13,137 nt of DNA from Thermoplasmata archaeon (GTDB taxonomy: Archaea > Thermoplasmatota > Thermoplasmata > GCA-020350865), in contig CP070751.1 in assembly GCA_020348445.1 (NCBI GenBank), positions 3,016,167-3,029,303 of the forward strand. The letters run 5' to 3'. Below are positions 1,874 through 3,162 of this stretch, piece after piece. The notes beneath the pieces were generated by a model, which did not search any database, was not told the DNA's origin, and saw nothing but the letters and a program-made list of their open reading frames with translations. Each line of letters begins with the position of its first letter. The stretch's first letter is position 1. A program made the translations under genes and the position numbers.

Positions 1874-3162
1874 ATGGCAGAGGTCACAACTCAAGACTTC
1901 CTCTCTTTTTCTAAATCCCATTCCAAAGTGGTTTTCAAAGATCGGCTGGGAGCCAAGGAAATCTCAATCCCCATAGGCCAACCCCACAAGATAAAATCCT
2001 ATCAGCCAAAGACATTTCATCTCCAAATATTCACCACCTGGTCCTTCCCGAAACGAGGCTCCTGGGCAACCCACAAAGGCAACTACATTGTAAATCTTCT
2101 GAATATAAGCAATTTCAAACTTAAGAAGTTTACAATTCAGTGCTCCTGCTTATGCTAAGCCCAACAAAAGGAGCACGAGAAGGGGCAACTGGGCTCCAGA
2201 AATCCCAAGAAACATCATATTCAGATATTCGGAGCCAGGCAATCTCGTTTTGGACCAAATGTGCGGCTCGGGAACCACACTTGTGGAATGTAAATTGACT
2301 GGAAGGGATGGGATCGGGGTAGATATCAACAAGAATGCCTTGATGATAGCCAGGGACCGTCTGAACTTTGGCTATGAGACCATAGATAACTCTATTCCCA
2401 AAACCACCCAAAAGACCTATGTTGGGGATGCTAGGAACCTGGATAAAATAAAGACTGGCTCTGTAGATTTGATTGCCACCCATCCGGCTATAGAAATTTT
2501 CGATATCAAGCGATTTGAAATGGAGAAAATTTATATGTCGACGCACCTGGAATCATAGAACATAAAGGTGCGGCAAGACTATGCCAATATCATTCCATAC
2601 TCGAAAGAGAGGATCGAAGGGGATTTATCCAATACTCACAGCATCGCAGAATTTGCCAAAGAGATGAAAGAGGTTGCGGAGGAGTGCTTCAGGGTTCTGA
2701 AACCAGACCATTTCTGCGCAATTCTAATTGGAGACACCAGGAGGAACCTGCACTATGTGCCTGTTGCGTTTAGGACTCTCCAGTCTTTCTTGGAGGTTGG
2801 GTTTATACTAAGGGAGGACATTATATGATCAAATACGGATTTATCATTTAAGTAGCAGAGTATTTGATTATGTGTATGTGACATCCCTAGCAGAGTATAA
2901 ATTATGTCACATACAACAAAACATCAGTGGCAGTGCGATTATGGCATAATATCCACCGAGGGAGCAGGTGCAAGCGAGTTTCTTTTTGACCCATTTTTTT
3001 CTTTTGAGCTTGCGCCAGCGGACCGAGGTGCAAAGAAAAAAACGGTGGGTGAAGAAGTCCATGGAAAGCAACTTTTTGATGATTATGCATGAGCACTTGT
3101 TTGTTTTCCGTAAACCAGCAGAGAACGAGAGATTGAAGAAGTTCAAAGAGAGCATGGCTTAA
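1874..3162 (+). CDS. SAM-dependent N4-cytosine/N6-adenine type DNA methyltransferase, interrupted by four inserts. Coding segments 1874-2086, 2181-2488, 2579-2825, 2919-2936, 3031-3162 (918 nt, 305 aa plus stop). May be functional through insert removal, or a pseudogene.
   Basis: Joined segments read ...TWSFPKRGSWATHKGNY|RGNWAPEIPRN...LDQMCGSGTTL...GVDIN...GDAR...DLIATHPA|YANII...GFILREDII|KHQWQC|QRKKRWVKKS...HEHLFVFRKP, with no internal stop or frameshift. Motif I (xCGSGT) and motif IV (HPxY) are present. Confidence 0.85.
2087..2180 (+). other. Insert 1 (94 nt), two-hairpin intervening sequence
   Basis: ATTGTAAA(T)CTTCT 2087-2100 pairs with AGAAGTTTACAAT 2124-2136. Linker TCA. GTGCTCCT 2140-2147 pairs with AGGAGCAC 2169-2176. 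Tail GAGA. Splits GNY|RGNW. Confidence 0.9.
2489..2578 (+). other. Insert 2 (90 nt), two-hairpin intervening sequence in catalytic motif IV
   Basis: TATAGAAATTTTC 2489-2501 pairs with GAAAATTTATATG 2525-2537. CGCACCT 2542-2548 pairs with AGGTGCG 2566-2572. Tail AAGA. In-frame TAG at 2556-2558. The 5' boundary is set by frame and by analogy with inserts 1 and 3, with about 2-3 nt uncertainty. Confidence 0.85.
2826..2918 (+). other. Insert 3 (93 nt), two-hairpin intervening sequence
   Basis: TGATCAAATAC 2826-2836 pairs with GTATTTGATTA 2860-2870. Linker TGT. GTATGTGACAT 2874-2884 pairs with ATGTCACATAC 2904-2914 (perfect 11 bp). Tail AACA. The insert-free allele is at 10095-10115. Confidence 0.9.
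2937..3030 (+). other. Insert 4 (94 nt), short hairpin plus long irregular hairpin
   Basis: ATTAT-GGC-ATAAT hairpin at 2938-2950. CACC 2954-2957 pairs with GGTG 3027-3030, enclosing GGTGCAAGC/GCTTGCGCC. Removal restores the five-codon C-to-W spacing seen in the insert-free copy at 10139-10159. Confidence 0.8.

Follow-up and report, generated by a model that had tools for sequence, protein, structure and literature searches.

A genus-restricted family of twin-hairpin elements, probably mobile DNA, interrupts a methylase gene in Thermoplasmata

Introduction

The REP sequences and BIMEs of bacteria are extragenic, G+C-rich and numerous hairpin repeats, whose cleavage near the foot of the hairpin is attributed to an enzyme with its gene at another genomic locus; the RAYT (Y1/HUH) gene is flanked by REPs of its own. 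In the attC sites of integrons, structure is conserved over sequence, one strand folds and the crossover takes place at the base of the hairpin. The PATEs of the archaeon Haloquadratum walsbyi are derived from IS200/IS605 elements, are too short to encode a transposase, lack terminal inverted repeats and carry palindromes near their ends (PMC3119063). IStrons combine a group I intron with a transposon of the IS200/IS605 or IS607 type (PMC4227781; bioRxiv 10.1101/2023.11.20.567912), and archaeal bulge-helix-bulge introns occur in protein genes, e.g. cbf5 (PMC2738675).

The window analyzed here, a stretch of 13,137 nt from a Thermoplasmata archaeon, contains an N6/N4 DNA methyltransferase (methylase) gene split into five pieces by four non-coding segments. 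An earlier note on this DNA had described a common layout of two tandem hairpins in the first three of these segments (inserts 1-3). We report that these inserts belong to a family of elements found mostly outside genes, and we weigh the explanations that may account for their presence in the methylase.

Materials and methods

The window lies in a closed assembly of 5.16 Mb (G000, referred to below as the host genome); G001 is a same-genus relative (CP070739.1) labelled Methanomassiliicoccales archaeon. The search for methylase homologs covered a protein database, two collections of contigs and the genomes of 61 relatives, and yielded about 100 methylase loci, designated with the prefix L where they have to be told apart; the contigs of L042, L043 and L188 come from JGI sample 3300027893, those of L185 and L186 from 3300041075. 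Inserts 1-3 could not be aligned in register by MAFFT, and therefore no model was made directly from them. BLAST of each insert against the host genome returned no second copy; the link to a wider family came via structure and motif scans, followed by a covariance model (R1) comprising 11 host-genome copies located outside the methylase gene and zero methylase inserts. The stem enclosing the 23-nt loop of insert 2 was drawn by hand, with a 2-nt bulge.

Results

Layout and boundaries of the methylase inserts

When inserts 1-4 are taken out, a 301-codon methylase frame is recovered (Table 1). The boundaries of the inserts are pinned to within 1 nt by same-genus orthologs that lack each of them: the insert 1 site is empty in G003, L042, L043 and L044 and filled in G001, the insert 2 site is empty in G001, G002, G003 and the other alleles, and the insert 3 site is empty in G001, G002, G003 and a paralog fragment at host-genome positions 4960253-4960514. 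Insert 1, with its 94 nt, shifts the reading frame, both inserts 2 and 3 contain in-frame stop codons, and insert 3 opens with one. Translation through the inserts was considered and rejected, since reading TAG as sense opens insert 2 and the i0 of G003, but not insert 3 or the i0 of L042, and the frame shift of insert 1 remains. A translated palindromic element of the Rickettsia RPE type was rejected on similar grounds, the length of insert 1 not being a multiple of three and stops being present in the other two.

Table 1. Positions of the methylase gene and its inserts in the window, carriers of each insertion site, and matches to covariance model R1
Feature	Window position	Strand	Carriers	R1 match and remarks
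N6/N4 DNA methyltransferase gene	1874..3162	+		PF01555 matches on pieces; colinear with uninterrupted homologs
Methylase coding pieces (n = 5)	1874-2086, 2181-2488, 2579-2825, 2919-about 2939, 3046-3162	+		
Site i0			G003, L042; remnant in L190	L042 copy, 36.6 bits; G003 copy, 21.0 bits
Insert 1 (i1), twin-hairpin element, 94 nt	2087-2180 (or 2088-2181; 1-nt ambiguity)	+ (sense)	G000, G001	Window copy from 2087, 18.0 bits, E 0.12; G001 copy, 23.4 bits; fold z -3.96
Insert 1, hairpin 1	2087-2136			
Insert 1, linker	2137-2139			
Insert 1, hairpin 2	2140-2176			
Insert 1, tail	2177-2180			
Insert 2 (i2), twin-hairpin element, 90 nt	2489-2578	+ (sense)	G000	2489-2583, 29.6 bits, E 6e-4
Insert 2, hairpin 1	2489-2535			
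Insert 2, hairpin 2	2542-2572			
Insert 3 (i3), twin-hairpin element, 93 nt	2826-2918 (1-nt ambiguity)	+ (sense)	G000	11 bits, E 3 (weak); fold z -3.65
Insert 3, hairpin 1	2826-2870			
Insert 3, hairpin 2	2873-2915			
Insert 4 (i4)	2940..3045	+	G000	Different repeat family from the twin-hairpin inserts; other genomic copies
Site i5		antisense to gene	L042, L043; another, truncated copy probable at start of L043	
Site i6			L186	Cut by contig end

The folds and the ortholog-fixed boundaries together confirm that inserts 1-3 are laid out as two hairpins and that base 1 of each insert is also the start of hairpin 1. The AAAT motif, described by the earlier note at bases 6-9, occupies that position in all three inserts and in four more from relatives (i1 of G001, i0 of G003 and L042, and i6 of L186). 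It is preceded by five variable bases in the 5' arm of hairpin 1, an arrangement found in all sense-oriented inserts (i0, i1, i2, i3 and i6), and the probability that AAAT recurs at a fixed offset in two further sequences by chance is about 2e-4. The loop of hairpin 1 measures exactly 23 nt, with G as its first and A as its last base, in inserts 1-3, i0 and the i1 of G001, and the i6 fold is likewise. The C-R-A-S-A tail of the layout as first described does not extend to other copies: the tail reads R-C-T-G in i0 and T-T-A in a copy located in an rnpB-derived repeat, and in the minimum-energy fold of insert 2 the linker and the tail are 6 nt each.

All three inserts fold better than dinucleotide-shuffled controls (z from -2.8 to -4.0), but their reverse strands do so about equally well (z from -2.3 to -3.7), insert 1 being more stable in antisense. 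A comparison of the hairpin arms with the flanking gene sequence revealed no consistent copy or complement in the methylase inserts. Behind many tRNA genes of the host genome (e.g., at 368700, 644559, 3315177 and 4695939) we observed foldback elements with A+T-rich loops of 23-24 nt, like that of hairpin 1; their arms copy the tRNA end, whereas the arms of the methylase inserts do no such thing with their flanks.

Insertion sites and the state of the methylase

Among the approximately 100 homologous loci, inserts are confined to alleles of this genus, in which they occupy seven sites sharing no common flank. Empty sites exist for i0, i1, i2, i3 and i5, with no duplicated bases at any of them. 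Inserts shared between alleles are more alike than their hosts: i1 is 82% identical between the alleles of the host genome and G001 vs 43% identity at four-fold sites of the host genes, and i5 is identical at 93 of 94 bases vs 51% at four-fold sites, with the flanks diverging right at the 3' end of i5. In i1, changes affect 3 of 42 stem positions vs 18 of 52 positions elsewhere (p 0.002), the stems, linker and tail being kept while the loops drift, and compensatory stem changes between shared copies convert the first pair of i1 from A-T to C-G and a pair in hairpin 2 of i0 from G-C to C-G. Since the similarity of shared inserts exceeds that of neutral sites of the host genes, they are not old inactivating insertions left in place; their likeness requires either repeated site-specific re-insertion, or short-tract gene conversion, or selection in place on the fold of a harmless insert that is kept foldable.

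Insert 2 is located in catalytic motif IV, which after ideal removal of the insert reads HPAY in the window gene vs HPPY in 16 homologs; a catalytic proline, invariant in the homologs, has been lost at the junction. At otherwise invariant residues, private changes amount to 2 of 95 in the host genome vs 0 of 462 in its relatives (p 0.03). The G001 allele has a stop codon (TAG) at the i1 junction, the allele of L190 is decayed and retains a remnant of i0, insert-free pseudogene alleles with stop codons (L184) or a frameshift (L181) occur in the genus, and several decayed methylase fragments are found elsewhere in the host genome. The methylase family is thus frequently defective, which fits insertional damage. 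The exons of all insert-bearing alleles, save for the one TAG in G001, are otherwise open, and exon dN/dS is about 0.05, with synonymous sites saturated; accordingly, the inserts either arrived recently or are harmless.

Two further features of the methylase loci deserve mention. A second, insert-free methylase remnant is present in the window at 6214-6281 and 10040-10270, divided by a large block of other genes, and lacks 2 nt of the HPPY codons at the position of insert 2. Moreover, four methylase alleles (L023 of G001, L043, L090 and L185) contain one in-frame TAG each, at positions occupied by Tyr, Trp, Ser or Gln in relatives. In pseudogenes such codons may have arisen by chance, or they may hint at TAG read-through in the lineage, whose nearest named relative is labelled Methanomassiliicoccales.

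The element family outside the methylase gene

In the host genome, which has about 20 copies, R1 matches 21 places at E up to 1. Each of the 5 genomes from the genus contains the family (4-20 copies each), and 36 genomes from other genera of the class yielded no copy. When R1 is applied to the methylase inserts, matches begin at the exact first base of the inserts (Table 1), which identifies their common position-exact layout as descent from one element family. The i5 copies of L042 and L043 match on the strand opposite to the gene, with 39-41 bits vs 16-17 bits on the gene strand; the family is therefore not bound to the sense strand of genes. The inserts thus belong to a gene-less family of twin-hairpin elements of 93-95 nt that is confined, among the genomes searched, to this Thermoplasmata genus, and the grammar they have in common, i.e., five variable bases followed by AAAT, a 23-nt loop running from G to A, a short linker, a second hairpin and a tail of 3-6 nt, is a mark of ancestry.

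The main subfamily, recognized by motif scan, consists of a 95-nt unit in which both loops are 23 nt long, with some units arranged as head-to-tail pairs. In addition to such tandem pairs, the host-genome copies include one nested in another repeat, others in rnpB-derived repeats and others directly upstream of start codons; the copy at 4960515-4960607 lies within an insert-4-type element, and that at 3041611-3041703, in an rnpB-derived repeat, has a twin at 756435-756527 and a hairpin 2 similar to that of insert 1. Genome-wide counts of hairpins with 23-nt loops, and of AAAT-bearing stems followed by a second hairpin, showed no excess. Two apparent matches near 4516200-4516450 were rejected as chance.

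Two host-genome copies are missing at the same place in G001, G002 and G003, one of the alignments showing exactly 95 extra bases. Both of these copies sit at the start codon of a gene and are flanked on each side by TCAT or TCATG, a pattern interpretable as target plus element end. Copies are therefore precisely present or absent at orthologous sites without target duplication, and they occur between genes, in tandem, nested and, in the methylase family, in both orientations. A cut-and-paste MITE was rejected as an explanation, because the elements have neither terminal inverted repeats nor a target duplication.

The covariation of the stems, suspected by the earlier note from three divergent inserts, was borne out by 19 family copies, in which the stems are paired in 97.9% of cells and compensatory change has affected 9 pairs, values reached by 0 of 500 shuffles. 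The stems of the same copies contain 34 G-U vs 2 A-C cells (p about 2e-8), and this one-sided wobble means that one defined strand folds. The proposal that wobble pairs form on the sense strand only, which is weakly supported within inserts 1-3, thus holds strongly for the folding strand of the family as a whole. The folding strand coincides with the methylase sense strand in inserts 1-3, whereas in gene-adjoining copies it is antisense to the adjacent gene, which speaks for single-stranded DNA over mRNA as the folded form. Of the two alternatives that had been offered, a fold in the mRNA or in sense single-stranded DNA, the latter fits best, and we found no evidence for action in the mRNA.

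A real gene start adjoins 6 of 17 copies. Main-subfamily copies lie exactly at start codons at host-genome positions 1365109-1365207, 1212797-1212893, 3246682-3246780, 767328-767426 and 2008625-2008721; the reverse strand of such copies provides a GGAGG box, an ATG and an A+T-rich, TATA-like stretch, and they may serve as portable start regions.

Single hairpins resembling hairpin 1, with a 23-nt loop, were also noticed inside a 185-nt repeat (regions of 3037144, 3044482 and 4055668 in the host genome). This repeat recurs in an array beyond the window, where it may mark the borders of cassettes, and its hairpins hint at a relationship between the 95-nt units and cassette end sites.

Insert 4 and its relatives

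Relatives of insert 4 are found in the host genome behind tRNA-Gln(CTG) and tRNA-Thr(CGT), where they are followed by a spare tRNA 3' end (regions of 3896744 and 4743738). A comparable arrangement is seen in G001, G002 and L044 (loci L023, L025 and L044), in which an intact methylase gene precedes an insert-4 relative, with an extra copy of the gene's 3' end beyond it. A loop segment forms base pairs with the tail in this family, and these pairs covary from copy to copy.

Discussion

We consider it probable, at roughly 0.6, that inserts 1-3 are diverged copies of a genus-restricted, hairpin-ended mobile DNA of the single-strand type, which hit a dispensable methylase gene. The element would move as folded single-stranded DNA of the folding strand, after cleavage at the hairpin 1 foot and a few bases beyond hairpin 2 by a trans-acting enzyme, for which a Y1/HUH transposase or a hairpin-reading recombinase may be the nearest model. 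The methylase copy in the window would then have been disabled by the insertions and not rescued at the RNA level. The host genome contains five Y1 (IS200-type) transposase genes, none of which has a family hairpin or R1 match nearby. A 661-bp IS200-type element encoding only a Y1 transposase, with G+C-rich end hairpins, is present in two identical copies (2860309-2860969 and 3338969-3339629); in this element, the one examined, the end hairpins are unrelated to the twin-hairpin family. The seven insertion sites in a single gene family of 0.9 kb are striking, given the 4-20 detectable copies per genome, and count against a reading in terms of mobile DNA only.

An intron-like or a reversible-switch role, the two taken together, represents a possibility of clearly minor weight. 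In the first, which we judge unlikely, the mobile DNA would also be removed from the transcript in an intron-like manner by a trans-acting enzyme that reads the two hairpins, leaving insertions into the methylase harmless and making the element a small, protein-dependent analogue of IStrons. Such removal would account for the four inserts in one otherwise intact gene, for the open exons under strong purifying selection, and for the conservation of the stems, linker and tail of i1 next to drifting loops; moreover, homing introns show the same pattern of several element types that each occupy a site of their own at an intermediate frequency. However, the catalytic motif remains mutated after perfect removal of insert 2, a stop codon stands at the i1 junction of G001 and many alleles are plain pseudogenes. 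Since i5 is antisense, its mRNA would bear the non-folding strand, and most family copies lie outside genes, with the folding strand antisense to the adjacent gene. Neither a known ribozyme nor a bulge-helix-bulge was found: the best of 25 junction offsets provided 5-8 of the 12 pairs required for two 3-nt bulges and a 4-bp helix, never the full motif, and the window has no Rfam match at E up to 1.

An extended version, in which a 95-nt gene-less element homes to one exact site in diverged gene copies without a homing endonuclease, by means of its own variable stem bases, and is tolerated through exact transcript removal marked by the two hairpins, appears rather unlikely to us. If true, it would define a new class of protein-dependent mobile mini-introns in Archaea.

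The reversible DNA switch, which we regard as quite improbable, assumes that part of the population regains the methylase through scar-free excision of the peel-and-paste kind, and that phase variation selects for hairpins competent in excision. Insertion without duplication is precise enough for excision to restore the gene, the stems of orthologous inserts are conserved, and an excision scar could explain why the paralog remnant of the window is short by 2 nt precisely at the position of insert 2. Against this, four elements would have to depart jointly from a gene whose catalytic proline is already gone; no empty-site variant of the window allele was seen and no enzyme was found.

Programmed translational bypass, the process known from phage T4 gene 60 and the yeast mitochondrial byp elements, would have the ribosome jump over each insert; it would explain structured inserts inside a reading frame and the stop codon at the start of insert 3, but is highly improbable, as the take-off and landing triplets are mismatched at all three inserts (TAC/AGA, GGC/AGA and ATA/ACA), the same elements occur outside genes and in antisense, and known bypass gaps are about half as long as these inserts (90-94 nt). 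The earlier proposal that the tandem hairpins guide a nuclease and ligase or a hopping ribosome is therefore not upheld, in view of the mismatched triplets, the lack of a bulge-helix-bulge and of an Rfam match, and the copies located outside genes and in antisense.

If the preferred reading of inserts 1-3 as mobile DNA is correct, they represent small mobile DNA with hairpin ends, apparently of a type so far undescribed, from a genus of uncultured archaea. Such an element, very regular in build with its two hairpins, its 23-nt loops and its cleavage at the hairpin foot, would offer a clean substrate in the search for a new single-strand DNA transposase or recombinase. The intact exons, the conserved stems at shared sites, the near-identical copy at the same site of diverged alleles and the seven sites bear, in turn, on the existence of a second kind of intron in archaeal protein genes.

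Compared with known systems, the methylase inserts resemble bulge-helix-bulge introns in that both are short and non-coding, interrupt a protein gene of an archaeon and leave an intact frame once exactly removed; the inserts differ in having no bulge-helix-bulge at any junction and in belonging to a family located mostly outside genes. The introns of cbf5 are shorter than the methylase inserts. With IStrons, the elements would have in common the concept of a DNA transposon made harmless in genes by leaving the RNA, but an IStron includes protein genes and a ribozyme several hundred bases long, whereas the elements described here comprise 95 nt with no ribozyme match. Like attC sites, they fold from one strand, conserve structure over sequence and would have the crossover at the base of a hairpin; unlike them, they consist of two tandem hairpins rather than one, with no integrase or cassette gene attached to the 95-nt units. 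REPs and BIMEs are likewise short, gene-less hairpin repeats that are often paired, but the copies in this genus are few, A+T-rich and present inside a gene, and none flanks a Y1 gene. PATEs differ in having a longer 5' spacer, as hairpin 1 begins here at base 1-3 of the element; both loops are long in our elements, at a fixed 23 nt, and no parent transposon is evident, the hairpins being unlike the ends of the resident 661-bp IS200-type element. In common with PATEs, the twin-hairpin elements are too short to encode a transposase, have no terminal inverted repeats, carry palindromes near both ends, generate no target duplication, often lie within other mobile elements and fold in a strand-specific manner. 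As regards the fixed target of 4-6 nt beside which PATEs insert, the main subfamily lands next to a fixed sequence of 4-5 nt (TCAT or TCATG), and the seven methylase sites share no flank.
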